A stretch of DNA of 61,802 nucleotides, the filler included. It is 4 parts of 4 records of this genome, joined end to end, with 100 filler letters (N's around TTAATTAATTAA, not from the genome) between each part and the next. Parts side by side here need not be neighbours in the genome. Positions count along the whole stretch, not along the records: positions 41,687 to 54,900 come from DRR723986_13749; 3 more parts are not named here. The stretch is one strand, 5' to 3'. Made by a program: the position numbers and the translations under genes. Positions within the stretch are counted from its first letter, which is position 1. Every line of letters starts with the position of its first letter. The notes below the pieces were generated by a model. That model was not told the DNA's origin. It saw only the letters and a list, made by a program, of their open reading frames with translations, and made no database searches. Shown here in pieces: positions 6,539 to 54,187 of this stretch.

Positions 6539-6541
6539 ACT

Positions 6542-8848
6542 ATGAGTAACAAAGCAAAACCCCAAACTTCCCCATGGGTGACCAAGACTGTAAAATTTCT
6601 TTGGATTGCCTTTATAGCAGGATTTTTTGGTTTCATCCTTTTTGTTTGGATGATTAGTATCAACTTTCTAGGATTATTTGGAACGCTACCAGACTTTAAA
6701 GCTTTAGAAAATCCAGATTCTGAAATTGCATCGGAATTATATTCTACGGACGGGGTGCTCCTAGGACAGTATTTCCGTGAAAATAGAAGCCCTGTCAAGT
6801 ATGAAGACCTGTCACCAAATCTAGTTAATGCATTGATTTCGACTGAGGATGTACGTTTTGAGAACCACTCCGGAATCGACATGCAAGCAATGATGCGGGT
6901 TTTTGTCAAATCAATTTTACTTGGCCAGAATGCCGGTGGAGGATCTACACTTAGCCAGCAGACCGCAAAAAACCTTTTCAAAACTAGAACAGATGCCAGC
7001 AATGGTTTGCTAAGCTCAATCCCTGGCCTGCGGATGTTAATCATTAAGACCAAAGAATGGATTGTTGCTACTCAATTGGAGAAAGCTTACACTAAAAATG
7101 AGATCCTAACATTGTATTTAAACACTTCCGATTTTGGATCTAACGCATTTGGGATAAAAACTGCCGCCAAGACTTTTTTTAATAAAACTCCCTCAGATCT
7201 TGCCGTTCAAGAATCAGCTGTTCTGGTTGGCCTATTCAAAGCTCCGACCTACTATAGCCCTGTTTACAATCCAGAGAACTCACTTCGTAGACGTAATACT
7301 GTATTATCACAAATGCGAAAGAACGATGCGTTAACTGATTCAGAATATGATTCTCTGTCCAAATTACCCATTGAATTAAACTATAGTGTAGCAAATCAAA
7401 ATAAAGGATTAGCTACCTATTTCAGGGAAATCGTCAAAGCAGATTTGATAAAATGGACGAAGGAAAACTTAAAATCCGATGGAAGTGCATATGATCTTTA
7501 CGGAGATGGTCTTAGAATTTATGCTACTATTGATAGCCGCATGCAGCAATACGCAGAAGATGCAGTGGCAGATCATATGGCAACCTTGCAAGCTAAATTC
7601 TATAAGGAAATGGGTAAAAATGACCCATGGATAGATGAACACCGTCGTGTTATCCCGAATTTCATCGAAGATGCCGTAAGAAGAACTGAAGCTTACCGCT
7701 TACTCAAAGTACGCTACGGAAACGACACAGATTCTATCAATCTCAAGCTGAATGAGAAAAAGAAGATGAAGGTATTCTCATGGGAAAAAGGAGAAATAGA
7801 TACCCTAATGAGCTCAATGGATTCCATGCGGTATTATAAGAAATTCCTTCAGACTGGCTTTATGAGTATGGATGCACATACGGGACAAATCAAAGCTTGG
7901 GTGGGTGGTTTGGACCATAAGTATTTTAAGTACGACCACGTACTTAGAGCTAAGAGACAGCCTGGTTCTACCTTCAAGCCATTCGTATATGCCGCAGCCA
8001 TTGAAAATGGCTACAGTCCATGCTATAGTGTGATCGATCAGCCTGTGGAAGTTTACATTCCAGGGCAACCTGCATGGAGTCCTTCCAATGCAGACGGAAC
8101 ATTCTCCTATAAGAAAATGACTATCAGACATGCGATGGCAGAATCTGTAAATTCTATTACTGCCTATATGATGAAAAAGTTAAGCCCTAAGATTGTGGTA
8201 GAGACCGCAAGAAGATTAGGAGTAACAAGTGATTTGGAAGAAGTTCCAGCTTTGGCGCTAGGAGTAAATGATGTTTCTATTTTCGAAATGGTGGGGGCCT
8301 TTGGGACTTTTGTCAATAAAGGTGAGCATACAACCCCATTCTATATTGACCGCATTGAGGATAAAAACGGGAACGTAATTCAGCAATTCACAGCTAAAAA
8401 GAGACCGGCAATGAGCGAAGAACATGCTTATTTAATGACTTATATGCTCCGAGGTGGTTTTGAAGAAAGCGGCGGAACAAGTCAGGGTGTGGATTGGGAA
8501 TTGAGGCAAGACAATGAGCTTGGAGGTAAAACTGGAACAACCCAAAATGCTTCCGATGGTTGGTATATGGGAATAAGTAAAGACCTAGTAAGTGGAGTAT
8601 GGGTAGGTGGAGATGATCGCGCTATTCACTTTAGAAGTTGGTATGAAGGTCAAGGAGGTAGGACTGCCCGACCTATTTGGCAGAACTACATGAAAAAAGT
8701 TTATGCTGACAAGAGTTTAGGATATACTAAGGGTGCATTTCCAAGACCTGAGCGTCCTCTTAGTATAGAAATAGATTGCGATGTCTATGAAAAAGAAAGT
8801 CAGCGTTTTGCTGACTTTGATTATGATGCAAAGAAGAACGATTTTTAA
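6542..8848 (+). CDS. Class A penicillin-binding protein (PBP1A-type transglycosylase/transpeptidase)
   Basis: EDVRFENHSGID, GGGSTLSQQTAKNL, QPGSTFKP (SxxK), SVN, KTGTT; N-terminal TM anchor. Confidence 0.95.
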   Translation: MSNKAKPQTSPWVTKTVKFLWIAFIAGFFGFILFVWMISINFLGLFGTLPDFKALENPDSEIASELYSTDGVLLGQYFRENRSPVKYEDLSPNLVNALISTEDVRFENHSGIDMQAMMRVFVKSILLGQNAGGGSTLSQQTAKNLFKTRTDASNGLLSSIPGLRMLIIKTKEWIVATQLEKAYTKNEILTLYLNTSDFGSNAFGIKTAAKTFFNKTPSDLAVQESAVLVGLFKAPTYYSPVYNPENSLRRRNTVLSQMRKNDALTDSEYDSLSKLPIELNYSVANQNKGLATYFREIVKADLIKWTKENLKSDGSAYDLYGDGLRIYATIDSRMQQYAEDAVADHMATLQAKFYKEMGKNDPWIDEHRRVIPNFIEDAVRRTEAYRLLKVRYGNDTDSINLKLNEKKKMKVFSWEKGEIDTLMSSMDSMRYYKKFLQTGFMSMDAHTGQIKAWVGGLDHKYFKYDHVLRAKRQPGSTFKPFVYAAAIENGYSPCYSVIDQPVEVYIPGQPAWSPSNADGTFSYKKMTIRHAMAESVNSITAYMMKKLSPKIVVETARRLGVTSDLEEVPALALGVNDVSIFEMVGAFGTFVNKGEHTTPFYIDRIEDKNGNVIQQFTAKKRPAMSEEHAYLMTYMLRGGFEESGGTSQGVDWELRQDNELGGKTGTTQNASDGWYMGISKDLVSGVWVGGDDRAIHFRSWYEGQGGRTARPIWQNYMKKVYADKSLGYTKGAFPRPERPLSIEIDCDVYEKESQRFADFDYDAKKNDF

Positions 8849-8870
8849 AAAAATATAAATCCTCTTTCCA

Positions 8871-8901
8871 AAACAGCCTTACACCAAGGCTGTTTTTTTT
8901 T
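8871..8901 (+). terminator. Rho-independent terminator after PBP1A
   Basis: AAACAGCCTT-acacc-AAGGCTGTTT followed by a T run. Confidence 0.85.
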
Positions 8902-8912
8902 AATTTTAGCCT

Positions 8913-10718
8913 ATGCAATCCTCTTCCTTTTTACCAACTGATCACCTCACGCTTCCAGATCAACCGGGGGTATACAAATATTTCAATGAGGAGAATGAAT
9001 TAATATATGTTGGTAAGGCAAAAAGCTTAAAAAAGCGGGTTGGTAGTTATTTCAACAAAAATACAGGCGTAAATCTCAAGACCAGAAAGATGGTCAAAGA
9101 AATACGAAGAATTGAAATCACTTTAGTTGACAGCGAATTTGACGCTCTCCTTTTGGAGAATAACTTGATAAAAAAGTCACAGCCGAAGTATAACATCTTA
9201 CTTCGAGACGATAAGACGTATCCTTATCTGCTTTTAACAAAAGAAAATTTCCCGCAAATCTTCCCTACGAGAAAAATGATTCCTAGGAGAGGAACTTACT
9301 TTGGGCCTTTTGCCAGTGTGAAGGCTATGAATAATGTACTGGACTTGATTCGAGAGTTATTCACTATAAGAACTTGCAAACTTGATTTATCCCCATATAA
9401 AATAGCTGAGGGAAAATATAAAGTATGCCTAGAATACCACATAGGTAATTGCCAGGGGCCTTGTGTAGGATTACAAAATGAGGTTGATTACAATAAAGAT
9501 TTGGAGCAGGCAAAGCATATCCTAAAGGGTAATCTTGCTGTGGCAAAAGCATATTTCAAACAAGAAATGCAGCTACATGCAGAAAACCTGGAATTTGAAA
9601 AAGCTCACAAACTCAAGGAAAAATTGGAGTTGCTTGAAAAGTACCAGGCCAAGTCGCTAATAGCAAGCCCGTCAATTAACAATCTAGACGTGTGTACAAT
9701 TGTGTCTGATGAGAAGCATGCCTATGTAAACTTCATGCGGGTAAAAAATGGCGCGCTGATAACATCAAAGAACGTGGAGCTAAAAAAGAGACTGGATGAA
9801 TCTGACGAACAATTGCTCCTCACAGCATTAATTAGACTTCAAGATCAATTCCAAAGTGATGCCGAAGAGGTCTTACTAAATATCGAGTTGACAGAACAGA
9901 TAGAGGGATTGAATGTATTCCATCCGAAAATTGGAGATAAGAAGAAGCTTATCGAGTTATCCTTGAAAAATGCTCTTTATTACAAAAAAGAAAAAGCTTT
10001 ATTAGTAGGCTTAAATCAGGATAAAAAAGACCGAGTAATCCGCCAACTGCAACAAGATTTAAGTTTGCCGGAAATACCAGATCACATAGAATGCTTTGAC
10101 AACTCCAATATTCAAGGCACTAATCCTGTAGCTAGTATGGTTTGTTTTTTAAATGGTAAACCTGCGGTTAAAGAATATCGACATTATCACATTAAAACTG
10201 TCGTTGGTCCAGATGACTTTGCAAGTATGAAAGAAGTTGTAGGGCGTAGGTATAAGCGTCTATTAGACGAAGGTAAGCCTATGCCAAAGCTTGTGGTAAT
10301 AGACGGTGGTAAAGGTCAATTATCATCGGCAGTCGAGGCGCTCAAGGAATTGGGTGTATATGGGCAGATGCCTATTATTGGGATTGCCAAAAGACTGGAA
10401 GAAATCTATTTCCCTGGAGATTCCTATCCTATTCATATCGATAAGAAATCAGAGAGTTTGAGGCTATTGCAAAGAATCCGTGACGAAGCTCATCGCTTTG
10501 CTATTACCTTTCATAGAAACATCCGAAGTAAAAATGCTTTTGGAACACAGCTGACAGCTATCCCTGGCATAGGTAAAAGCACAGCTGATAACTTATTGAG
10601 TCATTTTAAATCAGTAAAAAAGATCAATGAGGCAAGCGAGAAAGAAATAGCCGCAGTAATAGGAGCTAGTCGCGCAAAAGCACTAATAGAATGGAAAGAA
10701 AAAAATAAAGGGGCTTAA
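8913..10718 (+). CDS. uvrC: Excinuclease ABC subunit C
   Basis: GIY-YIG (PGVYKY...YVGKAKSL), ECFDNSNIQG, IDGGKGQL, RDEAHRFAI, C-terminal HhH. Confidence 0.97.
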   Translation: MQSSSFLPTDHLTLPDQPGVYKYFNEENELIYVGKAKSLKKRVGSYFNKNTGVNLKTRKMVKEIRRIEITLVDSEFDALLLENNLIKKSQPKYNILLRDDKTYPYLLLTKENFPQIFPTRKMIPRRGTYFGPFASVKAMNNVLDLIRELFTIRTCKLDLSPYKIAEGKYKVCLEYHIGNCQGPCVGLQNEVDYNKDLEQAKHILKGNLAVAKAYFKQEMQLHAENLEFEKAHKLKEKLELLEKYQAKSLIASPSINNLDVCTIVSDEKHAYVNFMRVKNGALITSKNVELKKRLDESDEQLLLTALIRLQDQFQSDAEEVLLNIELTEQIEGLNVFHPKIGDKKKLIELSLKNALYYKKEKALLVGLNQDKKDRVIRQLQQDLSLPEIPDHIECFDNSNIQGTNPVASMVCFLNGKPAVKEYRHYHIKTVVGPDDFASMKEVVGRRYKRLLDEGKPMPKLVVIDGGKGQLSSAVEALKELGVYGQMPIIGIAKRLEEIYFPGDSYPIHIDKKSESLRLLQRIRDEAHRFAITFHRNIRSKNAFGTQLTAIPGIGKSTADNLLSHFKSVKKINEASEKEIAAVIGASRAKALIEWKEKNKGA

Positions 10719-10726
10719 AAAGCCCC
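10701..10726 (-). terminator. Terminator hairpin between convergent uvrC and gldN
   Basis: GGGGCTT-aaa-AAGCCCC (10710-10726), with TTTATTTTT downstream on the minus strand. Confidence 0.6.
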
Positions 10727-10736
10727 GTTGTATTTA

Positions 10737-11555
10737 TTACCACTCCCAAAGGGAGTTTTCATATTCTAGCAATTTGTATTCAAAATTGAGCGCATCCACA
10801 TAAGCCTGCATCTCTGGATTAGGATGATCAACAGCTACTAAATCGGCAATCAAAGCTTCTTCAGAGTTTGTGAATTTTCTTACCACAGATCTAAACAACC
10901 TAGTCTCAAATGCCTGATCATAAGTTAAGCTCCTCGCCTGATTTTGAAAATTAATCCATCTAGCATCAGGATGATCTTTGAAATGATTGTAGAAGTCTTT
11001 GTAACGAATGAAAGCAATTGTCTTCTGTCCTGCATTGGAATTTGTCTCTGACGGCATGACTAATTCAAGGTATTTGATATCAAATACCATGTCTGAATGA
11101 TGTTTATCAAAAACAAAATCTTCCTTGAAATCCAAATAGTACAATTGTTTTGAGAAGATACTATCTCCAGTCGCATTCAACCAGAAATTCTCTTGAAATT
11201 CAGCTATTGACAATGGCTGAGTGAAATCCTCATCAGCGAAAACTTCTAAAGCATTCTCCTCTACGATAGCATCATAAATCTGATTAACAATACCATTACT
11301 TTTGGTATCTCCAGAGCCATAAAGAGGCATATTATACTTTTCACGGAGATCAATCCTTCTCCAAACACCTATTTGATACATTTTATCATCTTCTCTGATT
11401 CTTTTAGCAGAGTAGATGGTATCCATGTCAAACTGACGATCCCCATACCCAGATGGACTAACGCTTGTAGCAGGGATTTGCGCCTGACTCACAAGAGGCG
11501 AAAATCCCCCGGCTATAAGCAAGGATAGGATTAATTTTGGAAGATACTTTTTCAT
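10737..11555 (-). CDS. gldN: Gliding motility/T9SS periplasmic protein GldN (PorN)
   Basis: VWRRIDLREKYNMPLY, EDFVFDK, C-terminal LLEYENSLWEW; last gene of gldKLM cluster. Confidence 0.9.
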   Translation of the reverse strand: MKKYLPKLILSLLIAGGFSPLVSQAQIPATSVSPSGYGDRQFDMDTIYSAKRIREDDKMYQIGVWRRIDLREKYNMPLYGSGDTKSNGIVNQIYDAIVEENALEVFADEDFTQPLSIAEFQENFWLNATGDSIFSKQLYYLDFKEDFVFDKHHSDMVFDIKYLELVMPSETNSNAGQKTIAFIRYKDFYNHFKDHPDARWINFQNQARSLTYDQAFETRLFRSVVRKFTNSEEALIADLVAVDHPNPEMQAYVDALNFEYKLLEYENSLWEW

Positions 11556-11587
11556 AATTATTCGTTTATGTTAATCCAAAACTCGAA

Positions 11588-13201
11588 TTACTTAACTCGA
11601 ATAGTGACAACTTGTCTTAATTCTGAAGGAATTTTATTTCCTCTGAAATTTGTCCTAGTTACTTGTCTAATTTCAAACACCACAACATCTCCAGCTCTAG
11701 CGCTTTCCAATAACGAACGCATCGCTAAACTATTGCCATTAGATATAGGCGTAGTTTGTCTAGGTACTTCATTTCTCAACAGTCTCATTTCACCACCAGT
11801 TACCTCGAAGGTAGCATCCTTTGCCATTGTTCTAGCAAAAGTTGGTTCTGCCTTAGCTAGCATTTTAAGTCCCATTAGAGAACTGATTGCTTGTGCTTGA
11901 CTTAGGTCAATTTCAGTACCATTAGATGAAGCTGGTACTAAGCTAGGCAAAGGAACTGGCTTAATATCATAATCCACTGTACCGATTTTATTTCCTCCAC
12001 TACTAACTCCAATATTTACCTTTCCAGATGCACCTGGAATTACAGTTAATTGACCAGGTTTATTTCCTTTAATAGCTTGCCCATTACTTACTGCGAATTC
12101 TGGTGAATAAGTGTTTCCTAGAGCGGGAACCTCAATCAAAAGCTCATTTGCACAATCCGCATAAAGCTGTTGTACAACTTCTGAGGAAACTTTAATTACG
12201 GGCTGAGCTACGAAGTACTCATATTCAACTGGTAGCACTTTATCTTCTCCACCTACATTGGTGATAATCTCACCGTTGATTACTCTTCTAGCTAATCCTC
12301 TATCATCATACTCAGAAGCTGGAGTTACATTAAATTCAATTTTACCAAACCCAGTAGCATCTACAGGCACCGCACGACCATCAATAGTCATAGTCGGCAC
12401 TGAAGCTGTTGAACTTGAAGCGATAAACATATCAGCTTCGAACTTTGTACCAGCTGCTACAACATTAGATAATGCAGCAATTCTTGCTTCAGTAACGTCA
12501 GCTTTGAAAAAGAATGAACCAATTGTATTCTGTACCGCAGTTAGTGACTCACTTTCAATATTCAAAACTTCGTTTTGGTATTGTGAAATCAAAGCAATTA
12601 CAGCACCAACTGGAGATTTAACGAAATTCAATGCAACAAAGTCCTTATTTCTTGCTTCTCTGTCATTTGCGAAAAGCTCGATTTCAGATGCATCCTTAGC
12701 GATGTCATCAAATTTGAGATCAGAAAGTCCTACTGAGCTTAAAATTTCGGATATCTTGGCAGGATAAGCATTTAATTTTTGCTTCATCTCTTCTCCTTTA
12801 CCATTATTGGCAAATAGATTACCAGTAATCTCTGTATTTTTAAGTTGCGCGTTTACGTAGTTGCCTTCGTCATTTTTAGCATTGGACTGCGTAATCAAAT
12901 CCTGCTTAAGCTGCTCCAAATAATCAAAGGTTTCTTTCGTAGCTTCTCGAATCTGGTTTGCTGCAGCAACTTTTGGCACATCCACTTCTTTGTTTCCTTG
13001 TTGATCTACCGTGTACTCTATCGATTCAACCGTTTTCTGGTTTTTATTGATGAAATTTCGGGAAGTCCTTTCCATTCCATCGTTAATCAATACAAATTTT
13101 TGGAGGATTTGGTTGCTTACCTGTAGGGCCAAAAGGGCCGTCAAAACCAGGTACATCATACCAATCATCCGCTGTCTAGGTGTCTCTTTAGCTCCTGCCA
13201 T
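11588..13201 (-). CDS. gldM: Gliding motility/T9SS motor protein GldM (PorM)
   Basis: MAGAKETPRQRMIGMMYLVLTALLALQVS hallmark N-terminus. Confidence 0.96.
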   Translation of the reverse strand: MAGAKETPRQRMIGMMYLVLTALLALQVSNQILQKFVLINDGMERTSRNFINKNQKTVESIEYTVDQQGNKEVDVPKVAAANQIREATKETFDYLEQLKQDLITQSNAKNDEGNYVNAQLKNTEITGNLFANNGKGEEMKQKLNAYPAKISEILSSVGLSDLKFDDIAKDASEIELFANDREARNKDFVALNFVKSPVGAVIALISQYQNEVLNIESESLTAVQNTIGSFFFKADVTEARIAALSNVVAAGTKFEADMFIASSSTASVPTMTIDGRAVPVDATGFGKIEFNVTPASEYDDRGLARRVINGEIITNVGGEDKVLPVEYEYFVAQPVIKVSSEVVQQLYADCANELLIEVPALGNTYSPEFAVSNGQAIKGNKPGQLTVIPGASGKVNIGVSSGGNKIGTVDYDIKPVPLPSLVPASSNGTEIDLSQAQAISSLMGLKMLAKAEPTFARTMAKDATFEVTGGEMRLLRNEVPRQTTPISNGNSLAMRSLLESARAGDVVVFEIRQVTRTNFRGNKIPSELRQVVTIRVK

Positions 13202-43286: not shown

Positions 43287-44150
43287 ATGAATTCAAGCAA
43301 CCAAAAACAGTCTTTGATTGCACGCGTAATCAAAGAACCTCTTTTTGCTTTCATGATCGTCGGAGGTCTTATTTTTGGAATTTCCGCAGCCCTTCAACCT
43401 CAAACCTCTGAAAAACATGACAATATTATTGAAGTTTCTGATGTAACCATCGACAGATTAACGGCTCAATTCGAGGCGGCTTGGAAACGCGATCCGACGC
43501 CAGAGGAAATGCAGGGCCTAATCGATACCTTCATTCGAGAAGAGGTCTTGGTTCGCGAAGCTTTGGCATTGTCCATGGATCAAGCAGACGCTGTGATCCG
43601 CCGTCGTTTGGTGCAGAAAATGACCTTTCTTATGGAATCCGCATCTTCGGGTGCACAACCCTCTGACGCGGAATTGCAGGCCTTTTTTGAGGCAAACAAA
43701 GACACGTATGCCGGCAAACAAAAACAAAGCTTTGAACAGGTCTATTTGGGGGCACAGGTATCGCAAGACGACGCATCACGCGCATTGGCAGCATTGAACG
43801 ATGGTGCGGATCCGCTAACGGTCGGGCAACCCTCGCTTATGCCCGGCGCTTTGACGCGCGCCCCCGCGCAAGTCGTTGATGCCACCTTTGGCAGAGGGTT
43901 CTTTGCCAGCGTCCTTTCGCAGCCCACCGGAGTTTGGGACGGGCCCGTGAGATCGGGCTATGGATATCACTTGGTGCGTGTAACCGAACGGCCAGTGGCG
44001 GCCGACCCAGCCCTAGATGACGTCAGAGAAAAAGTAATTGAAGACTGGGCGCAGCAAGCCACCGACGACATATCCAAAAAAATGTACCAAGCCATGTTAG
44101 CGAATTTCGACGTCACCCTGCCCGATGCACAACAGAATGTAACGCAATGA
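43287..44150 (+). CDS. Membrane-anchored PpiC/rotamase-like protein
   Basis: KEPLFAF TM, REEVLVREALAL...DAVIRRRLVQKM, WDGPVRSGYGYHLV. Confidence 0.85.
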   Translation: MNSSNQKQSLIARVIKEPLFAFMIVGGLIFGISAALQPQTSEKHDNIIEVSDVTIDRLTAQFEAAWKRDPTPEEMQGLIDTFIREEVLVREALALSMDQADAVIRRRLVQKMTFLMESASSGAQPSDAELQAFFEANKDTYAGKQKQSFEQVYLGAQVSQDDASRALAALNDGADPLTVGQPSLMPGALTRAPAQVVDATFGRGFFASVLSQPTGVWDGPVRSGYGYHLVRVTERPVAADPALDDVREKVIEDWAQQATDDISKKMYQAMLANFDVTLPDAQQNVTQ

Positions 44151-45166
44151 GGATGTGGATCGCAGCATTCCTTGCCTTTGTCATAGCGTGGATGCCCGTG
44201 CAGCCTGTTCTGGCCCATGCCTTGCAGCCCGGATACCTAGAGATTTCCCATCTGGGCGCAGAGACGTATCGGATTTTCTGGCGCAAACCCGATGTGAAGG
44301 GCAAAGCCATGGCGCTTGAGGCCACTTTGCCCGAAAACTGCACTCCGTCCATTGGGCCCGAGCCCAGATTTGACGGAATCGCATGGATCGCATCATGGTC
44401 GGCAACCTGTTCAGGGGGGCTTGCGGGCGGTCAAATCAACATTGGCGGGTTGGAACACACCCAAACGGATGTTCTGGTCCGCTACCCGTCATCAACTGGC
44501 GCCGCCTTAACACAGCGCCTGACGCCGGATTTCGCGTCGTTTGAGGTTCAGTCAGATCCCGATATCTGGACCGTTATCAGCAGCTATTTCTACCTTGGGC
44601 TAGAGCATATTCTAGGTGGGTTCGATCATCTGCTGTTTGTATTGGCCCTGCTTTTGTTGATCCGGGATCGATGGCGGCTTGTAGGCGCGATCACCGCTTT
44701 TACAGTCGCTCACAGCATCACAATGGCAGGTGCCACGTTGGGCTATGTGTCCCTGCCCGGCCCCCCTGTCGAAGCGGTCATTGCCCTGTCGATCATGTTT
44801 GTCGCCTCTGAATTGCTGAAACGCGATCCTGACACGCCGCGTTTTTCCGAGTTGTATCCATGGAGCGTTTCGTTCTTGTTCGGCTTGCTGCACGGATTTG
44901 GCTTTGCGGGGGCTCTGGCAGAAATTGGGCTACCGTCCGGCGATGTTCCCTTGGCGTTGCTGTCGTTCAACCTTGGTGTTGAGGCGGGTCAGCTTTTGTT
45001 TATCGCGGTGGTATTGGTCGCGGGTTATATCCTCAAACGTCTGTTAGAGCCGCGCGGTCTGCTGCCGCCCAAACTCCGCATGAATGTAAGTTGGGGGTCT
45101 GCACAGCTGATCGGTATCATGGCCGCCTATTGGCTGATCGAACGGGTCACAGGTATTCTGACATAG
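44147..45166 (+). CDS. HupE/UreJ-like membrane protein with periplasmic N-domain
   Basis: AHALQPGYL after the signal peptide, GLEHILGGFDHLLF, TAFTVAHSIT, FGLLHGFGFAG, FNLGVEAGQ; overlaps the upstream stop (ATGA). Confidence 0.88.
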   Translation: MRMWIAAFLAFVIAWMPVQPVLAHALQPGYLEISHLGAETYRIFWRKPDVKGKAMALEATLPENCTPSIGPEPRFDGIAWIASWSATCSGGLAGGQINIGGLEHTQTDVLVRYPSSTGAALTQRLTPDFASFEVQSDPDIWTVISSYFYLGLEHILGGFDHLLFVLALLLLIRDRWRLVGAITAFTVAHSITMAGATLGYVSLPGPPVEAVIALSIMFVASELLKRDPDTPRFSELYPWSVSFLFGLLHGFGFAGALAEIGLPSGDVPLALLSFNLGVEAGQLLFIAVVLVAGYILKRLLEPRGLLPPKLRMNVSWGSAQLIGIMAAYWLIERVTGILT

Positions 45167-46190: not shown

Positions 46191-47711
46191 ATGGCCAGAC
46201 GTTCCCGCGCTGCGCGTGACAGACAGACCCAAATACCCGGCGCGCCTGCATCGCCTTGGATCAAGCGCACCCTGCCGTTTTTTGACATGCTGGACGAAGA
46301 GGCCCTGCAAAAACTAGAGGCCCAAGTGGATTGGCTGTTGCAGGATATTGGCATTGCCTTTCGCGACGACCCCGAGGCGCTGCGGATCTGGAAACAAGCG
46401 GGCGCCACGCTGGACGGGGATATCATCCGCGCCGATGCACAGTGGATACGGTCCTTATGCGCCAAAGCCCCCAGCGAATTTACCCAACTGGCCCGAAACC
46501 CGGCGCGCTCGGTCACCATAGGGGGCAACAATCAGGTCTTTGCGCCCATATATGGGGCGCCATTTGTACGCGATCTGGAAGGCGGTCGCCGATATGGTGA
46601 CATGGATAGCTTTGAAAAGCTGGTCAAACTCACCTACATGCACCCCAATCTGCATCACGGGGGTTTCGTCATCTGCGAACCCTGTGATGTGCCGGTTTCC
46701 AAACGTCATTTCGATATGCTTTTTGCGCATATGACACTCAGCGACAAACCCCACCTTGGGGCGATCACCGAAATGAGCCGCGCCCAAGACAGCGTCGACA
46801 TGGCGGAAATCGTCTTTGGCCGCGAGGTGATGGACAACAATTGCGTCATCATGGGCAACGTCAACACCAACTCTCCGTTGTTGGTGGACAAGGTGGTGAC
46901 CGAAGCCATCCGCACCTATTCCGCCCGGGGTCAGGGGATTATCGTGGTCCCGTTTATCCTGTCTGGTGCGATGGGTCCGGTGTCCACCGCCGCATCCGTT
47001 GCCCAAGCGATGGCCGAGGCGATGATGGTCTGCGCTTTTACCCAGCTCGTCCGCCCCGGCGCACCGTTTGTGTTGGGCAACTTCCTCAGCTCAATGTCGC
47101 TGAAATCCGGCGCGCCCACGTTTGGCATGCCAGAGCCGGTGATTTCAAACTATGCCATTGGCCAGCTTGCACGCCGGGCTGGCCTGCCGTTGCGATGCGG
47201 CGGGTCGCTGACTGCCTCCAAGATCGAGGATGCACAAGCCGCTTATGAAAGTGCGGACTCAATGCACTCCACCATGCTGGCGGGGGCCAACTATGTGCTG
47301 CATTCGGCTGGCTGGCTCGAAGGGGGTCTGTGCACCGGGTTTGAAAAGCTCATTATGGATGCCGACCGTCTGGGATCATATCAAAAGGTCCTGTCCCAAG
47401 GTTTGGACACAAGCGACGAAGCCTTTGCGCGGGATGCCTATGGCGAAGTTGCCCCCGGCGGTCATTTTCTTGGCTCCGGGCACACTATGCGCAACTATCA
47501 GACCGCGTTTTATGAACCTGCCCTCAGCGACAGTGAAAACGTCGAAAGCTGGGAAGACGGCGGATCAAAGGACATGCGCCAACGCGCCTATGATCGCTGG
47601 AATGCAATGCTGTCCCAATACCAGGCTCCGCCAATGGACCCCGCAACCAAAGAAGAATTGTCCGCCTATGTTGCCAAGCGCAAAGAAGAGATCCCCGATG
47701 CTTGGTACTGA
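46191..47711 (+). CDS. Trimethylamine methyltransferase (MttB) superfamily protein, non-pyrrolysine
   Basis: YGAPFVRD, NTNSPL, GAMGPVS, SGAPTFG, GGSLTASKIEDAQAAYES, HSAGWLEGGL, GPGG-like APGGHFLG; no in-frame TAG. Confidence 0.93.
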   Translation: MARRSRAARDRQTQIPGAPASPWIKRTLPFFDMLDEEALQKLEAQVDWLLQDIGIAFRDDPEALRIWKQAGATLDGDIIRADAQWIRSLCAKAPSEFTQLARNPARSVTIGGNNQVFAPIYGAPFVRDLEGGRRYGDMDSFEKLVKLTYMHPNLHHGGFVICEPCDVPVSKRHFDMLFAHMTLSDKPHLGAITEMSRAQDSVDMAEIVFGREVMDNNCVIMGNVNTNSPLLVDKVVTEAIRTYSARGQGIIVVPFILSGAMGPVSTAASVAQAMAEAMMVCAFTQLVRPGAPFVLGNFLSSMSLKSGAPTFGMPEPVISNYAIGQLARRAGLPLRCGGSLTASKIEDAQAAYESADSMHSTMLAGANYVLHSAGWLEGGLCTGFEKLIMDADRLGSYQKVLSQGLDTSDEAFARDAYGEVAPGGHFLGSGHTMRNYQTAFYEPALSDSENVESWEDGGSKDMRQRAYDRWNAMLSQYQAPPMDPATKEELSAYVAKRKEEIPDAWY

Positions 47712-47772: not shown

Positions 47773-50223
47773 ATGCCCGAAATTCAAAGCGACACCTCGA
47801 CCACCACCAAAAAGCTGCCCTCACACGCCAAAGTCGTCATCATTGGCGGCGGTGTTGTTGGCTGTTCCATTCTGTACCATCTGGCCAAATTCGGCTGGAA
47901 AGACGCCGTTCTCCTGGAACGGGACGAGCTGACATCAGGCTCGTCCTGGCACGCGGCTGGTCAGATCCACACCATCAGTTCAGACCCAAACATCTCGCGT
48001 CTGCAAAGCTATACCATTGATCTGTATAAAGAGATCGAAGAGCTATCGGGCCACTCGGTCGGATTGCACATCACCGGTGGGTTTTATCTGGCCTCGAACA
48101 AAACATGGTATGATTATCTCAAACGCGAACGCTCCAAAGCGCGCTACATGGGGCTCAACCAGGAATTCATTTCCCCAAAAGAGGTGGCCGAACGTCATCC
48201 GCTGATCGACCCCAGCCATTATCACGCCGCGTTGTGGGATGATCAGGATGGTGATCTGGACCCGTCTGGGGCCACCTATGCCTTTGCCAAGGCCGCCAAA
48301 GTCCACGGCGCGCAATATTTCACACATACCCCGGCAACTGCCACGAAACAGCGCCCCGATGGCAGCTGGGATGTGACCACGCCCAAGGGGGTGATCAACG
48401 CCGAACACATTGTGAACTGCGGTGGCCTGTGGGCACGCGAAGTCGGGCATATGCAGGGTCTGAACCTGCCGGTGCAGCCGATGGAACACCACTATCTGAT
48501 CACTGAAAAAATCGACGCCGTTGCCAACCACCCAACCCGCCTGCCTGCCGGGATCGATTACGAGGCGAACATCTACTTCCGCCAGGAACGTCAGGGGATG
48601 CTTTTGGGCACGTACGAGCCCAAAGGCACACCTTGGAAAGTTGGCGGCACCCCATGGGATTTCGGGCATGAACTGCTGCAACCCGATCTGGACCGCATTG
48701 CCGATCGACTAGAGATGTCATTCGAACGTATCCCAGCGATTGGCGAGGCCGGCATCAAGGATATGATCAACGGGCCGTTTACCTTTGGCCCCGATGGCAA
48801 CCCGATGATTGGCCCGGTGCCGGGGATGAAAAACTATTGGTGCGCCGTGGGCGTGATGGCCGGGTTCTGTCAGGGCGGCGGCGTGGGCCTGACCATGGCC
48901 GAGTGGATGATCGACGGCGAACCCAGCATTGATGTCTGGGCCATGGATGTGGCGCGTTTTGGTGATTTTGCCACCCCCGACTGGGGCACGGTCAAGTCGA
49001 CCGAAAACTACGAACGTCGCTTTGTCATGACATTTCCCAATGAAACGCTGCCCAAGGGACGGATGCAAAAAACCACTGCCCTGCATGACCGCCTTGTCGC
49101 CAAAGGCGCGCGGATGGGGCAGAGCTTTGGTCTGGAAAATGCGTTGTGGTTTGCGGATGGGCCCGCGGACGCCCACGAAGACCCCACGTTCGAGCGCAAC
49201 CGCAGCCATGACTATGTCGCGCGCGAGGTCAAAGCCGTGCGCGAGGCGGTGGGCGGCATTGAAATCGCCAATTTCGCCAAACATGAATTCAAAGGCGCGG
49301 GCGCGCGCGCCTATCTGGATCGGACCCTGGCAGGATACGTCCCCAAACCGGGCCGCCTGACTCTGACCCCAATGCTGACACCCAAGGGCAAGCTGTACGG
49401 GGATCTGACGGTTGCCTGTTTAAGCGAGGACCATTTCATCCTGTTCGGGTCAGGCACCATGCAAGAGGCCCATCGCCGTTGGTTTGAAAAGGATCTGCCC
49501 AGCGATTTGACCTATGCCAATGTCAGCGATGACTGGCATGGGATCGCCCTGTCCGGTCCAAAGTCGCGCGATTTGCTGGCCCGCCTCACCCGTGACGACG
49601 TTTCAGCGGATGCGTTCAAATTCCGCGATCTGCGCCAGACCTATGTCGGGGGCGTCCCTGTCATTTTGAACCGGATCTCGTTCAGTGGTGAGCTGGGCTA
49701 TGAAATCTATTGCAAACCGCAATACCTGCTGCGTCTGGCAGAAGCAATTGAAGAGGCAGGCGCTGACCTCGGCTATCGCTGGTATGGCGCACGCGCGCTG
49801 ATGTCGATGCGGTTGGAAAAAGGTTGGGGCGTGTGGACACTGGATTTCCGGCCCGATTTCGACGCCGTTGAATCCGGGATGGATGTGTTCATCAACTGGA
49901 AGAAAGACTTCGTCGGCAAAGACGCCACCCTTGCGGCACGTGATACCGGCCCCAAACAAAAGCTGGTCACGATGACCATAGATGTGGACGGAATTGATGT
50001 CAGCAACGACGAGGCAATTCTGAAAGATGGCACCGCCGTCGGATATATCTCGTCTGGCGGATATGCCCACCACGTAAGCAAATCCATGGCCATGGGATAT
50101 GTCAGCACGCAACATGCCGAGGCGGGCACCCAGCTGCAGGTCGAAATTCTGGGCGATCTTTATGACGCCGAGGTGTTGGGCGCGCCGATCTACGATGCCA
50201 GCGGCGCCAACATGCGGGCCTAA
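47773..50223 (+). CDS. FAD-dependent oxidoreductase with GcvT folate-binding domain (dimethylglycine/sarcosine dehydrogenase-like)
   Basis: IIGGGVVG, LTSGSSWHAAG (covalent FAD His), FGPDGNP, RISFSGELGYEI, SMRLEKG. Confidence 0.93.
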   Translation: MPEIQSDTSTTTKKLPSHAKVVIIGGGVVGCSILYHLAKFGWKDAVLLERDELTSGSSWHAAGQIHTISSDPNISRLQSYTIDLYKEIEELSGHSVGLHITGGFYLASNKTWYDYLKRERSKARYMGLNQEFISPKEVAERHPLIDPSHYHAALWDDQDGDLDPSGATYAFAKAAKVHGAQYFTHTPATATKQRPDGSWDVTTPKGVINAEHIVNCGGLWAREVGHMQGLNLPVQPMEHHYLITEKIDAVANHPTRLPAGIDYEANIYFRQERQGMLLGTYEPKGTPWKVGGTPWDFGHELLQPDLDRIADRLEMSFERIPAIGEAGIKDMINGPFTFGPDGNPMIGPVPGMKNYWCAVGVMAGFCQGGGVGLTMAEWMIDGEPSIDVWAMDVARFGDFATPDWGTVKSTENYERRFVMTFPNETLPKGRMQKTTALHDRLVAKGARMGQSFGLENALWFADGPADAHEDPTFERNRSHDYVAREVKAVREAVGGIEIANFAKHEFKGAGARAYLDRTLAGYVPKPGRLTLTPMLTPKGKLYGDLTVACLSEDHFILFGSGTMQEAHRRWFEKDLPSDLTYANVSDDWHGIALSGPKSRDLLARLTRDDVSADAFKFRDLRQTYVGGVPVILNRISFSGELGYEIYCKPQYLLRLAEAIEEAGADLGYRWYGARALMSMRLEKGWGVWTLDFRPDFDAVESGMDVFINWKKDFVGKDATLAARDTGPKQKLVTMTIDVDGIDVSNDEAILKDGTAVGYISSGGYAHHVSKSMAMGYVSTQHAEAGTQLQVEILGDLYDAEVLGAPIYDASGANMRA

Positions 50224-50274
50224 CCCTGCAAAACCACCGATGTGTGCCCTTTCAAAGGGGCACGCACCACTCTG

Positions 50275-51099
50275 TCAGAGGTGATCCAAGGCTTCGTGCA
50301 ACTTGGCCAACTCGCCCTCGTGCATGGATATGGATTGGGCCGGATAGGGGAAATTGCGCGCCTGAACCTCGCTTTGGAACGCCTGCAACGCTGTGACCCG
50401 TTCGGAATAGATTTGCTGATGCAAACGGTTCAAATCACCAAACGCATGGGCGTGTTTCGGCGGGTTCTCTGCCTCTCCACAGATGTCAGCCATGAACAGA
50501 AAGATGATATCGCCCGCGTTTCCAGACCCAAGCGAGATCGTCACGATCGACGTCCGGTCGTTGAGCAAGCGCAGCGTATCCTCGGCCACACATTCAATCT
50601 CGCAGGCAAAGGCCCCGGCATTTTCATAGTCTTTGAAAGTCCGATAAATCGCCATCGCTTCGTCCGCGGTCCGACCAAAGGCCCGCAACCCACCAGCCCA
50701 ATGGCTGAGCGAGGGCACCAACCCCATGTGAACCTGAACTGGAATGCCCTCTTTCGCGAGCATTTCCACCACCTCGTAAGATCGGTTGGTGAAATACATA
50801 TCCGCGCCCTGTTCCATGCAAGTTATCGCATGGCGCATGATCTCATCCTTGGTGGCAAACTGCCCCCAGTTCATAGCCGTGCCCGCAAAATGGGTGGGGG
50901 CCAACGCCCGCGCCATGTCCAGATGCACATCCCACAGTGTCAGCGTGTCAATCCCGGCCTCAACGCAGGCTTTTATTTCGGCCTCATTGGCTGGATTGCA
51001 CATGGTCAGGCGCTGGCCGTTTGCTTTGAGATCTTGCAGATCCTTAGCCGTATAATTGCGCTGCGCGGGTTTTCGGCCAAAAGTATAGATGTTTTTCAC
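50275..51099 (-). CDS. Divergent PanB-like (ketopantoate hydroxymethyltransferase fold) protein
   Basis: GIPVQVHMGLVP, GGLRAFGRT, ENAGAFACEIECV, ISLGSG, PKHA; canonical GDS, DxPF and VKxEG motifs not recognisable. Confidence 0.85.
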   Translation of the reverse strand: MKNIYTFGRKPAQRNYTAKDLQDLKANGQRLTMCNPANEAEIKACVEAGIDTLTLWDVHLDMARALAPTHFAGTAMNWGQFATKDEIMRHAITCMEQGADMYFTNRSYEVVEMLAKEGIPVQVHMGLVPSLSHWAGGLRAFGRTADEAMAIYRTFKDYENAGAFACEIECVAEDTLRLLNDRTSIVTISLGSGNAGDIIFLFMADICGEAENPPKHAHAFGDLNRLHQQIYSERVTALQAFQSEVQARNFPYPAQSISMHEGELAKLHEALDHL

Positions 51100-51109
51100 A
51101 GGTCGATCC

Positions 51110-52108
51110 TCACTTGGTTAGCCAGATTTTGCGGCGGCGTTCTTTGACCAGCTCGTTTCCGTCCACAGTGCCATCGTGAAAGGTGTTGAACCACCGATCC
51201 CAAGGCGTTTCCCACGTGCCATAGTTGCAGTCGAAAAACTTGTGATGCAGCTGATGAAAGAAATCCCCCAGCGCAAATTTCCCGACTTTGCCCAGCTTGA
51301 TGTTTTCAAAACCTGCATGGGACGTGGGCGCGCCGATCCCGTGATGTAACAGCAAGAACAACACATGCACCGGATGCGCGGGCAGCAGGAAAAAGATCAT
51401 GGTGTCAAACATCAGGAAAAAGCTTTCGACCGGGTGCATGGCCAAGCCAGACCACGGGCCGGTGTTGATGTTCTTGTGATGCCAGCTGTGAAACCACGTA
51501 TACAGCTTGCCCACATGCAACAGCCGATGCAGCCAATAGAAATGCAGCCCGGCCCAAATTGGGATCGACACGATCAATGCAACGAACCAGATCGGGTTGC
51601 TCTGGACCGTGATCATCGTGGCCCAGCCATTGGCATAGGCGTACCACATCAGGCATTCCCAGAACGTCCAGAACGCAAGCGCGGGACCCAGAGACCAGAA
51701 CATGTTGTCCCAGACCTGATTTTTGAAATAGAAAACCTTGGCCCCCTTGGCCATGGGACGCATGTCATAGCGATAGTCGTCTTGCTGTGTTCGGTATTTC
51801 CACAAGGCCAGATGCAGCCCCCCCGCCACAGCCACCAAAATGATCAGGTTTCGCACCCAAATCTCAAAGATCCAGCTCGCTTCCAGCGTTTTCATGCGGG
51901 TCATGTCGGGCGTGAACCACGTCCAGACGGCCATCGCAACGATCAGGATCAGGAACCGCAATCCGACGGGGTTCCAGCTCTGCAAGAGATAGAGCAGGGA
52001 TGCCACAGGTCGGGCGGGCCAATCCCAATAGGGTGCCATGTTCAACGGCAAGGCAGGCGTGTAGTTCCATATCTTACGCGGGACACGCTTTGTTTCGGGG
52101 GTACCCAT
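51110..52108 (-). CDS. Sterol desaturase / fatty acid hydroxylase family membrane di-iron enzyme
   Basis: His boxes HFYWLHRLLH, HSWHH, HQLHH; CNYG and WDRWFNT; about 4 TMs; start moved to ATG 52108 (G-rich RBS). Confidence 0.9.
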   Translation of the reverse strand: MGTPETKRVPRKIWNYTPALPLNMAPYWDWPARPVASLLYLLQSWNPVGLRFLILIVAMAVWTWFTPDMTRMKTLEASWIFEIWVRNLIILVAVAGGLHLALWKYRTQQDDYRYDMRPMAKGAKVFYFKNQVWDNMFWSLGPALAFWTFWECLMWYAYANGWATMITVQSNPIWFVALIVSIPIWAGLHFYWLHRLLHVGKLYTWFHSWHHKNINTGPWSGLAMHPVESFFLMFDTMIFFLLPAHPVHVLFLLLHHGIGAPTSHAGFENIKLGKVGKFALGDFFHQLHHKFFDCNYGTWETPWDRWFNTFHDGTVDGNELVKERRRKIWLTK

Positions 52109-52237
52109 CAGAATCCCCCCCAATATTTTTGCATGATGAGTGTTGCACGCTTCATTGCAATATTCCCTAAATTCGCACTAAGGGGCATATTTGCTCAAGG
52201 AAACGCTTGGCGCACAGTCCAAATATCCTCATGATCG

Positions 52238-52254
52238 GATAACTTTTTATTATC
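52238..52254. promoter_or_regulatory. LysR recognition box
   Basis: GATAA-N7-TTATC dyad containing T-N11-A (52240/52252) in the divergent promoter region, 16 nt before the LysR ATG. Confidence 0.65.
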
Positions 52255-52270
52255 ATGGTAAGAGATAGAG

Positions 52271-53200
52271 ATGCGCCGACGCCTGCCCCCTTTGAACGCA
52301 TTGCTCGCCTTTGAAGCGGCGGCGCGTCATGGCAATTTCACGCGCGCCGCACGCGAACTGTCTGTCGCGCAACCCGCTGTCACGCGCCACATTGCAAATC
52401 TTGAAAACTGGTTTGGAACTTCGCTTTTTAAAAGAAATGGCAATCACGTCTCATTGACTGCACAAGGACAAGAGGTCGCCGAACTGGCACTTGGCGCTTT
52501 TGACCGGCTCGAACTGGGGTTTGACCGCATGGCAAAGCGGGGTGAAAACGAACTGGTGATCGGGGCGTCTTTTGGTATGGCGCACCTTTGGCTCATGCCG
52601 CGGATATCGGAACTGCGGGGGGCGGCACAGGGCGCGGCGATCAATTTTGTGACCTCTGATACTTACACTGATTTTGACAGCAATAAGGTCGACTTTTCGA
52701 TCCGTTTTGGCACCGGTCACTGGCCCGGATACGCGGCTGATTTGCTATTTCGCGAAGAAGTTCAAGTGATCGCCACCCCCAAGTTTTTGCAAGCACACCC
52801 AGGCCTTGACCCTAACAATCTAACCGAAACGCTTACACAGGATTGGATGTTGGATCATGGCGATGAACACGCAATCGGCTGGTTCACGTGGCACACTTGG
52901 CATCAACACCATCAGCTTGGATTTGACACCACACGCCCCTTTACCGAAATTCGCAACTATCCAACCCTGCTGGATATGGTTCTCTCTGGCGAAGGGGTTG
53001 GGTTGGGCTCTTCTGGATTAGAAGATCCGCACGTTCTCTCTGGTGAACTTGTCAGACTAGGGCCCGTGATCAGCCGCCCCAACCATGGCTATTACTTGGT
53101 CTATGACCCTGATACTCTTGAAAAACCCGCAGCTCAAAATTTGCGAAGCCACCTTTTGACCGAAGCAAAGCATCGCTTAGACTCCGGCATAACACCCTAG
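52271..53200 (+). CDS. LysR-family regulator (GcvA-like)
   Basis: MRRRLPPLNALLAFEAAARHGNFTRAARELSVAQPAVTRHI. Confidence 0.95.
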   Translation: MRRRLPPLNALLAFEAAARHGNFTRAARELSVAQPAVTRHIANLENWFGTSLFKRNGNHVSLTAQGQEVAELALGAFDRLELGFDRMAKRGENELVIGASFGMAHLWLMPRISELRGAAQGAAINFVTSDTYTDFDSNKVDFSIRFGTGHWPGYAADLLFREEVQVIATPKFLQAHPGLDPNNLTETLTQDWMLDHGDEHAIGWFTWHTWHQHHQLGFDTTRPFTEIRNYPTLLDMVLSGEGVGLGSSGLEDPHVLSGELVRLGPVISRPNHGYYLVYDPDTLEKPAAQNLRSHLLTEAKHRLDSGITP

Positions 53201-53254
53201 GTTCGAAACCGAATTGCCATCGACCCAGTAGAACATGACACAAGGATTCAAACC

Positions 53255-54187
53255 GTGGCCTCAAACAAACAGTCCCTGACGCCACCGAACCAGACGTCGC
53301 CAAACCTTAGGGGTGTTCTGTGGGCGCTGTTGTCCACTGCGATCTTTGCCTTGGTGGCGGCGCTGGCTAAGATTGCATCCGGCGATTACCATGTTCTGCA
53401 AATCCTGTTCATTCGCCAAGTTGTTGTGTTTTTTGCAGCGGTCCCGTCAATCGCCGGTAATTTTCCACACAGCCTGCGCACGCAGCACCCCAAACTGCAC
53501 CTGATCCGCCTGATCGGGGCCTTTCTTGCCTTGTCTTGTAGTATATGGGCGGTTTCGGTGTTGCCGCTGACGACTGCGATCACTCTTACTTTTGCTCAGG
53601 TCTTTTTTGTGACCCTGTTGGCCATGTGGTTTCTGAACGAACCTGTCGGCCGCCATCGCATTACGGCCGTTGTCTTTGGCTTTATCGGCGTTCTTTTCGC
53701 AACCCGCCCCGGTGTCAGTGGCTTTTTTGATGTCTATGCGCTGATCCCGATCCTTGGCGCGTTGGGGGCGGCCATGGCTGTCACCTCTATCCGCCGTCTG
53801 TCACAAACGGAATCCACCGCAACCTTACTGGCCTATCAAGCCATTTTCGTCGGGGCATTGGCCGGTATTCCTATGTTCTGGCTGTGGGAAGCCCCAGACG
53901 CCCAAGGGTGGATTTTGATGCTGAGCATGGGCGCTTTGTCCAGCGTGGGTCAGTGGATTGGCGTCAAAGCATTGCGCCTTGGCGAAGCCAGCGTTGTGAC
54001 CAACATCCAATACATGAAACTGATCTATGCCGCGATTTTGGGGTATCTTCTGTTTCTGGAAATCCCAGATTCCTACACCCTGATTGGGGCTGCAATCATC
54101 ATCGGGTCGTCTGGTTACATGATGCACCGGGAACGGCGTCTCAAGATTGGCGCAGAAAAATCAGCCTTTGCAGGGCCACGAAACTAA
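53255..54187 (+). CDS. EamA/DMT-family transporter
   Basis: About 10 TMs in two repeats, FLNEPVG, GVLFATRPG, LFLEIPD. Confidence 0.9.
   Translation: MASNKQSLTPPNQTSPNLRGVLWALLSTAIFALVAALAKIASGDYHVLQILFIRQVVVFFAAVPSIAGNFPHSLRTQHPKLHLIRLIGAFLALSCSIWAVSVLPLTTAITLTFAQVFFVTLLAMWFLNEPVGRHRITAVVFGFIGVLFATRPGVSGFFDVYALIPILGALGAAMAVTSIRRLSQTESTATLLAYQAIFVGALAGIPMFWLWEAPDAQGWILMLSMGALSSVGQWIGVKALRLGEASVVTNIQYMKLIYAAILGYLLFLEIPDSYTLIGAAIIIGSSGYMMHRERRLKIGAEKSAFAGPRN

Follow-up and report, generated by a model that had tools for sequence, protein, structure and literature searches.

The window analysed here is a stretch of 61,802 nucleotides (nt) made of four contigs joined together, and the locus of interest lies on its alphaproteobacterial contig (positions 41687-54900, about 55% GC), where a gene for a membrane di-iron oxygenase, here called Des, is followed by a gene for a PanB-like protein, here called PanL. 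We conclude that the Des-PanL pair is a real, uncharacterised form of an 'oxygenase plus optional one-carbon (C1) helper' design; what is new here is the PF04116/LysR/HD/PhyH form, the repeated loss of PanL and its exchange for a GcvT-type gene. Judged from sequence comparison, and tentatively, Des could well be a heteroatom demethylase and PanL an optional formaldehyde-to-folate helper, in a predicted LysR-controlled catabolic unit. The two genes are:

51110-52108, minus strand: Des, 332 amino acids (aa) from ATG, PF04116 membrane di-iron His-box oxygenase, core gene of the unit
50275-51099, minus strand: PanL, 274 aa, GTG start, PF02548, PanB fold, optional partner

Des is a member of PF04116 (E 4e-19, 69.7 bits against a cut-off of 31). 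Its three His boxes are all present (H194-x3-H198, H207-x2-HH211 and H285-x2-HH289), and among 89 aligned relatives seven of the eight histidines are invariant and H211 is kept in at least 90%. The AlphaFold2 model has long helices and a mean predicted local distance difference test score (pLDDT) of 91. Its top structural match was Scs7p, but a weak one (Z 5.0, root-mean-square deviation (rmsd) 5.2, 189 residues aligned); Foldseek with this model returned nothing under E 0.001, and the sequence gave no significant match to solved PF04116 members. Known PF04116 members are mostly lipid enzymes. Scs7p, ERG25, AGMO and OlsE have the three His boxes in common with Des, and AGMO provides a precedent within the family for heteroatom dealkylation. 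A Des homologue was found in 150 of 401 sampled genomes of the family Paracoccaceae; the protein falls in a bacterial clade of about 330 aa, of which the literature search found no characterised member. In the closest named metagenome-assembled genome (L001 6978-7990; G002:C8), Des carries a frameshift near residue 95, possibly an assembly indel. A prediction of the Des-PanL complex in which no alignments were used scored 0.00 and is evidence neither way.

PanL is best described as PanB-shaped but no PanB, the Mg/2-oxo-acid site being evidently lost. By way of its AlphaFold2 model (pLDDT 92.8) it matches E. coli PanB (1M3U) best (Z 24.5, rmsd 3.1, 212 aligned), and a Foldseek match (E 9e-16) places it in the PanB (beta/alpha)8 fold, which it shares at 20-26% identity with the PanB structures 1M3U, 1O66, 3VAV, 3EZ4 and 1OY0 (EC 2.1.2.11). 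Against the NCBIfam panB models it reaches about one third of the cut-offs (88 against 272 bits and 75 against 208 bits). In a quick, midpoint-rooted tree of 116 locus-derived rows (P-id rows excluded), PanL formed a clade separate from PanB with a Shimodaira-Hasegawa-like approximate likelihood ratio (SH-aLRT) of 100. All five host genomes tested also have a full-score panB, and two of them carry three PanL copies.

The residues that distinguish PanL were followed through 131 close members aligned to E. coli PanB and through a wider set of 157 reaching below 45% identity, next to a canonical comparison set of ten rows (E. coli twice). We take D45 and D84 to be the Mg ligands of PanB. D84 is kept in none of the 131 (A, G, S or V instead) and K112 likewise in none (F, Y or I instead); E114 is substituted, S46 is variable, and 21 residues are deleted after the D45 position. 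An Asp lies near position 45 in 119 of the 131, with a register that varies between two alignments, and is variable in distant members; the N-terminal site as a whole varies across the 157. The LVGDS motif, D84, K112 and E114, which together mark the PanB pocket, are thus gone from PanL. In the part of PMC13488298 available, the strictly conserved pocket is D46 (D45 in the sequence used here), D84, K112, E114, H136 and E181. PanL keeps H136 (131/131), E181 (129/131) and D217 (131/131), the first two in 98-99% of the wider set, and shares with PanB D209 and the glycine motifs of the C-terminal half. Unlike canonical PanB, it has near-invariant E167 (V179 in PanB), F202 (V214), H216 (F229) and S189, conserved at 92-99% in the 157; V214 is F in 95%, and I212 is mostly F or Y. 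H124, E167 and E169 form a polar group at the barrel centre (98-99% conserved in the 157). Because I212A and V214G, like I202A, enlarge the nucleophile pocket of E. coli PanB (PMC7610986, in part), V214F and I212F likely close the 2-oxo-acid pocket. The accessible parts of PMC10949508 and PMC4814558 concern canonical panB only.

PanL appears to be dispensable yet under purifying selection, the ratio of nonsynonymous to synonymous substitution (dN/dS) being 0.00-0.08 in five of five pairs. The survey of 401 family genomes gave 14 Des matches at least 60% identical, and PanL accompanies five of them. Among metagenome contigs with Des (best 80 of 141 kept), 20 were at least 60% identical and 12 of these had 500 nt downstream; at the 12, PanL was found four times, an HD protein eight times and a PhyH protein four times. 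In G045 the same locus (92-93% DNA identity) cleanly lacks PanL, and one contig of run X1 skips positions 50266-51114 with the letters of the G045 junction (its shorter side has 37 letters); PanL is covered by a different contig of that run. L151 (96.8% identical, one contig) has a TAG at codon 25 of PanL and an eroded ribosome site, and G399 lacks the PanL that Leisingera carries at valS. Wider samples (151 relatives of G045 and 401 class-level genomes) gave no further close Des locus. In one lineage the slot is filled by another protein: L155 and L156 have LysR, then divergent PhyH-HD-Des-GcvT-like genes and valS, where L152, likewise headed by LysR, has PhyH-HD-Des-PanL and valS. This GcvT-like product is a stand-alone folate-binding GCV_T protein, nearest the Tdm and DmdA models and under their cut-offs.

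The recurring unit is LysR, Des plus optional PanL, an HD protein and a PhyH protein. Of 57 PanL loci found in GTDB, 50 reached 60% identity, and 1.2 kb of upstream sequence was available for 47 of them; neighbours were counted within 2.5 kb, and the loci are non-independent, about eight being Leisingera-like. Des was present at 25 of the 47, a PF00487 desaturase-family gene at 7, a divergent or nearby LysR at 22, HD at 8, PhyH at 4 and an amine-dehydrogenase-family gene at 4. The pairing noted by an earlier, sequence-only reading of this DNA recurs far beyond this genome. Among more distant PanL genes, a neighbouring Des or PF00487 gene was seen at 15 of 25 loci and at 15 of 20 hand-picked from lower-scoring matches, the PF00487 partners often with Rieske ferredoxins and sugar ATP-binding cassette (ABC) genes alongside. 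PF04116 and PF00487 swap inside one operon type, class II aldolase-oxygenase-PanL (L113, L118-L120), and di-iron oxygenase partners are found along the whole PanL tree, the two families alternating. EamA, MttB and DMGDH, on the other hand, were beside PanL at only one of the 57 loci (L001, 94% DNA identity to the window) and so are local context. The dedicated EamA transporter and the link to neighbouring DMGDH and MttB genes claimed by the sequence-only reading were not borne out by this count, which likewise gave no support to its idea of a tailoring-and-export pathway.

The contig at 41687-54900 holds no ferredoxin gene, and a ferredoxin reductase homologue is encoded elsewhere in five of five genomes tested. 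Three paralogous Des-PanL loci (L247, L134 and L136) have ferredoxin or reductase genes in cis, which supports a monooxygenase role for Des. In L025, L028 and L031 (about 5700-12950), PanL has a histamine/trimethylamine-dehydrogenase-family gene on one side and a dimethylargininase-like gene on the other; going by established family chemistry, these two flanking genes would give formaldehyde from dimethylamine. Rieske genes also accompany this group in the three loci, and a 76% identical dehydrogenase flanks LysR-Des loci without PanL in L169, L182 and L201.

In the proposed mechanism, Des would act as a monooxygenase that hydroxylates a small marine solute at a methyl group on N, O or S, with electrons from a ferredoxin and reductase encoded elsewhere. 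The resulting heteroatom hydroxymethyl would lose formaldehyde without an enzyme, and a glutathione-dependent formaldehyde dehydrogenase would cover it; PanL, with its kept H124, E169 and D205 and new invariants E167 and H216, would speed the capture of formaldehyde as methylene-tetrahydrofolate (methylene-THF). Since release from an N-, O- or S-methyl hydroxylation is unaided, the C1 step would be optional and could be dropped. All five genomes tested have a frmA-type dehydrogenase and FolD, whether or not PanL is part of their locus. The substrate would most likely, if weakly so, be a methylated amine, betaine or amino-acid derivative, to go by the GcvA-type LysR and scattered neighbours. 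The C1/folate link seen by the sequence-only reading gains indirect support from the GcvT-type gene that takes the place of PanL; the PanB-type retro-transfer from a carbon skeleton is not supported. It is possible, if less likely than not, that PanL more broadly represents a common but wrongly annotated branch of PanB which abandoned C-C chemistry, came to pass formaldehyde to folate as an enzyme in its own right and can be exchanged for GcvT domains; it would then mark many uncharacterised membrane di-iron demethylases (PF04116 and PF00487) with which marine bacteria take methyl groups from algal and invertebrate solutes.

Several observations weigh against a formaldehyde-to-folate role. According to parts of PMC13488298 and PMC4814558, formaldehyde condenses with THF in vitro without any enzyme, so a catalyst is possibly unneeded, and a Pfam scan of part of the PanL neighbours found no FolD- or PurU-type gene. 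The GcvT swap is confined to one lineage and counts as a single event (L155 and L156 are 97.9% identical); 21 other matches to the GcvT-like protein had no Des within about 1.5 kb. No listed oxygenase was found at 9 of the 47 close PanL loci, mostly in Acidimicrobiales. PanL favours membrane di-iron partners (32/47, 15/25 and 15/20), a preference that a generic formaldehyde trap leaves unexplained. We know of no structure that shows the folate contacts of PanB, and the kept C-terminal half is not equated here with a folate site. Finally, part of PMC7782822 describes a case from 2-aminoisobutyrate (Aib) catabolism in which the neighbour of a di-iron methyl hydroxylase, a hydroxymethyltransferase by annotation, turned out to be a decarboxylase.

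PanL could alternatively have a non-folate chemistry (as a lyase, deformylase, decarboxylase or hydrolase), speeding a reaction that would also proceed by itself or through another enzyme. It would then act on the product of the di-iron oxygenase through a rebuilt centre of H124, E167, E169, D205 and H216, perhaps a new metal site. The conservation of E167, F202, H216 and S189, which sets PanL apart from canonical PanB, fits such a role, as do the strong preference for membrane di-iron partners, with two families swapping along the tree, and the precedent of AibC (PMC7782822, in part). However, it explains neither why a GcvT-type gene takes the place of PanL nor why PanL genes lie beside amine dehydrogenase and dimethylargininase, and because the partners lie in amine-type as well as sugar-type operons, the shared oxygenase product would have to be simple; we regard this chemistry as somewhat unlikely. 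That PanL catalyses nothing, and serves as a folate or C1-folate buffer, a product sink or an oxygenase adaptor, seems distinctly unlikely: the known catalytic metal site is lost and the protein is dispensable but conserved, as a binder might be, yet the near-complete conservation of H124, E167 and E169 across the 157 members resembles a catalytic centre.

The sequence-only reading had proposed that Des hydroxylates a C-methyl group in the manner of ERG25 and that PanL, by a retro-aldol reaction, moves the hydroxymethyl group onto THF. The PanB fold, the kept general base (E181/E169) and the tight coupling of the Des and PanL genes agree with this, and PanB can use free formaldehyde, acting as a class II aldolase (PMC7610986, in part). 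It is disfavoured, and we find it very improbable, because the metal site is lost and because 9 of 14 close Des loci have no PanL, which an obligatory C-C step would not allow. PanB activity is metal-dependent (PMC13488298, 2026) and the enolisation of the 2-oxo acid in PanB is driven by a divalent metal (review, PMC7770189), as stated in the available parts of both; in PanL the residues D84, K112 and E114 are gone. It is highly improbable, too, that Des only modifies a membrane lipid, in the manner of OlsE, Scs7 or a sterol desaturase, with PanL as an unrelated passenger. The lipid bent of PF04116, the lack of a reductase or transporter conserved at the locus and the frequency of Des without PanL would suit it, but the divergent LysR, the co-oriented HD and PhyH genes and the amine-dehydrogenase, dipeptidase and peptide-ABC neighbours look catabolic, and PanL pairs with di-iron oxygenases over its entire tree.

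Several known systems resemble the Des-PanL pair in part. The rhizopine oxygenase MocD/MocE/MocF consists of a PF00487 protein, a Rieske ferredoxin and a reductase. Like this type, Des would be a membrane His-box di-iron enzyme in the catabolism of a small soluble compound, a likeness drawn by description, and the PF00487 genes with Rieske ferredoxins that pair with the same PanL family recall the MocDEF arrangement. The Des locus differs in having PF04116, no ferredoxin or sugar ABC in cis, a LysR regulator, and HD and PhyH partners. The dimethylamine monooxygenase dmmDABC includes DmmD, a GcvT-type subunit that is not essential and has been proposed to couple formaldehyde with tetrahydrofolate (H4F) (PMC5520151, in part). 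DmmD and the GcvT domains of Tdm and DMGDH thus resemble PanL as non-essential oxygenase partners, a GcvT-type gene filling the PanL slot in L155 and L156; PanL has no GCV_T match, and its likeness to DmmD is in role only. Aib catabolism (AibH1H2GF plus AibC) also sets a di-iron methyl hydroxylase beside an annotated hydroxymethyltransferase, but there, in the part of PMC7782822 available, the hydroxylase has an amidohydrolase fold and AibC is a pyridoxal phosphate (PLP)-dependent decarboxylase with no hydroxymethyltransferase activity; by analogy, this may be taken as a warning against deducing function from annotation. The sequence-only reading knew of no characterised pathway with this pairing, and a full-text literature search, whose coverage stops short of subscription papers and supplements, found none.

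In many marine genomes, the database labels given to such genes, for instance 'sterol desaturase' and '3-methyl-2-oxobutanoate hydroxymethyltransferase', are probably wrong (964 and 794 protein clusters at 90%). If the favoured reading is true, roseobacter C1 metabolism would gain a fold new to formaldehyde handling, together with a new family of enzymes that demethylate small molecules, and the half-functions of PanB, enolate chemistry and folate handling, would be split in nature. Natural pairs of strains with and without PanL make it directly testable.

The remaining features of the locus are:

52238-52254, no strand: T-N11-A palindrome of LysR type, in the 162-nt divergent intergenic region
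52271-53200, plus strand: LysR regulator, divergent from Des, GcvA/choline-sulfate-regulator neighbourhood
51107-51111, minus strand: ribosome-site-like GAGGA, recognised by sequence, overlapping the Des stop codon
50235-50271, no strand: G+C hairpin in the gap where PanL and the DMGDH-like gene converge, -18 kcal/mol (ViennaRNA)
53255-54187, plus strand: EamA transporter, PF00892, local neighbour outside the recurring unit
47773-50223, plus strand: DMGDH-like flavoprotein with GcvT domain, PF01266+PF01571, convergent neighbour outside the recurring unit
46191-47711, and from 54322 (the contig end cuts this second copy): MttB-like genes, on both sides

The genes and layout described by the sequence-only reading agree with these coordinates, with the Pfam matches and with the intact His boxes of Des, and the LysR is indeed head-to-head with Des across a gap containing a box, with EamA next. 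Its statement that MttB and DMGDH genes flank both sides holds for MttB, the DMGDH-like gene lying on one side only. The best NCBIfam matches of the LysR are GcvA (195 bits) and TIGR03418 (184 bits), both below cut-off. The chance figure of 0.07 for the palindrome is no independent test because the pattern was drawn from the same site. ATAA-N7-TTAT boxes resembling it are found in L138, L151, L013, L015, L020 and L021, and at Leisingera-type loci the LysR is an unrelated one (27% identity) and the box is CTAAG-N5-CTTAG-like, so that two unrelated LysR lineages with differing boxes precede the same Des-PanL pair.

The Des stop and the PanL start are 10 nt apart, a layout that suggests a single transcript, and the GAGGA over the Des stop suggests that PanL translation may be coupled to that of Des; this motif is retained in L001 and eroded in L151, where PanL has its early stop. 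The hairpin after PanL is likely a terminator, and a comparable one occurs in L001 and at the PanL-less G045 junction. A simple promoter and terminator scan, whose results were no better than those from shuffles, did not call it.

HD (200 aa, weakly PhnZ-like) and PhyH (resembling PDB 6ZYK) accompany Des in varying combinations, HD at least as often as PanL; no function was found for examples in L013 6346-6969, L045 5388-6950, L152 3433-4958 and L173 2034-2663. A phosphonate (PhnY/PhnZ) reading was set aside, as HD matches PhnZ weakly (E 1e-4), HD and PhyH vary independently and three of eight HD rows lack the Arg of the PhnZ-like RWD motif; phosphonates are kept as a possible substrate class only. 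Methyl-histidine or imidazole substrates were suggested by the best PhyH match, 6ZYK (presumably ThoJ), and by histamine-dehydrogenase-like, histidine-ammonia-lyase-like and M19 dipeptidase neighbours, which are too scattered to count. A GFA-family gene converging on Des in L147, at a single locus and on the opposite strand, was not counted either.

Among 7996 candidates scored, fused PanL forms came to one protein, with no second family named; longer proteins from a profile search were tandem PanL or odd single joins to unrelated domains, with no informative fusion, and ESM Atlas returned same-family clusters only. P0246 is a tandem PanL, a two-domain protein of 542 aa, and in L125 (1501-3195) two adjoining PanL genes follow a Rieske oxygenase. 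Three roseobacter genomes have a paralogous operon of LysR, then class II aldolase (PRK07490), GbcA-like Rieske oxygenase, PanL and Des (L074 5882-9829, L076 6180-11700 and L139 4660-10268), and two of them add RidA and a second Des. In the Acidimicrobiales loci L041, L042, L043, L047, L048 and L052, PanL is 62-70% identical, has no listed oxygenase near it and lies among unrelated or mobile-type genes, possibly through transfer. A distant PanL in L073 (7552-8397; G002:C17) stands alone within a mur/ftsW cell-division cluster.

The contig at 1-28039 has 36-41% GC and Bacteroidota gliding genes (GldM, PorP) and is unrelated to the contig with Des; the contigs from 28140 to 61802 have 52-61% GC, so organisms are mixed in the assembly. 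G001 was dropped as a relative, with canonical panB only and no Des match; it most likely mirrors the Bacteroidota contig. On the Des contig itself, a PPIC-type rotamase and a HupE/UreJ-family gene form a pair at 43287-45166, between an AraC regulator and a second LysR.

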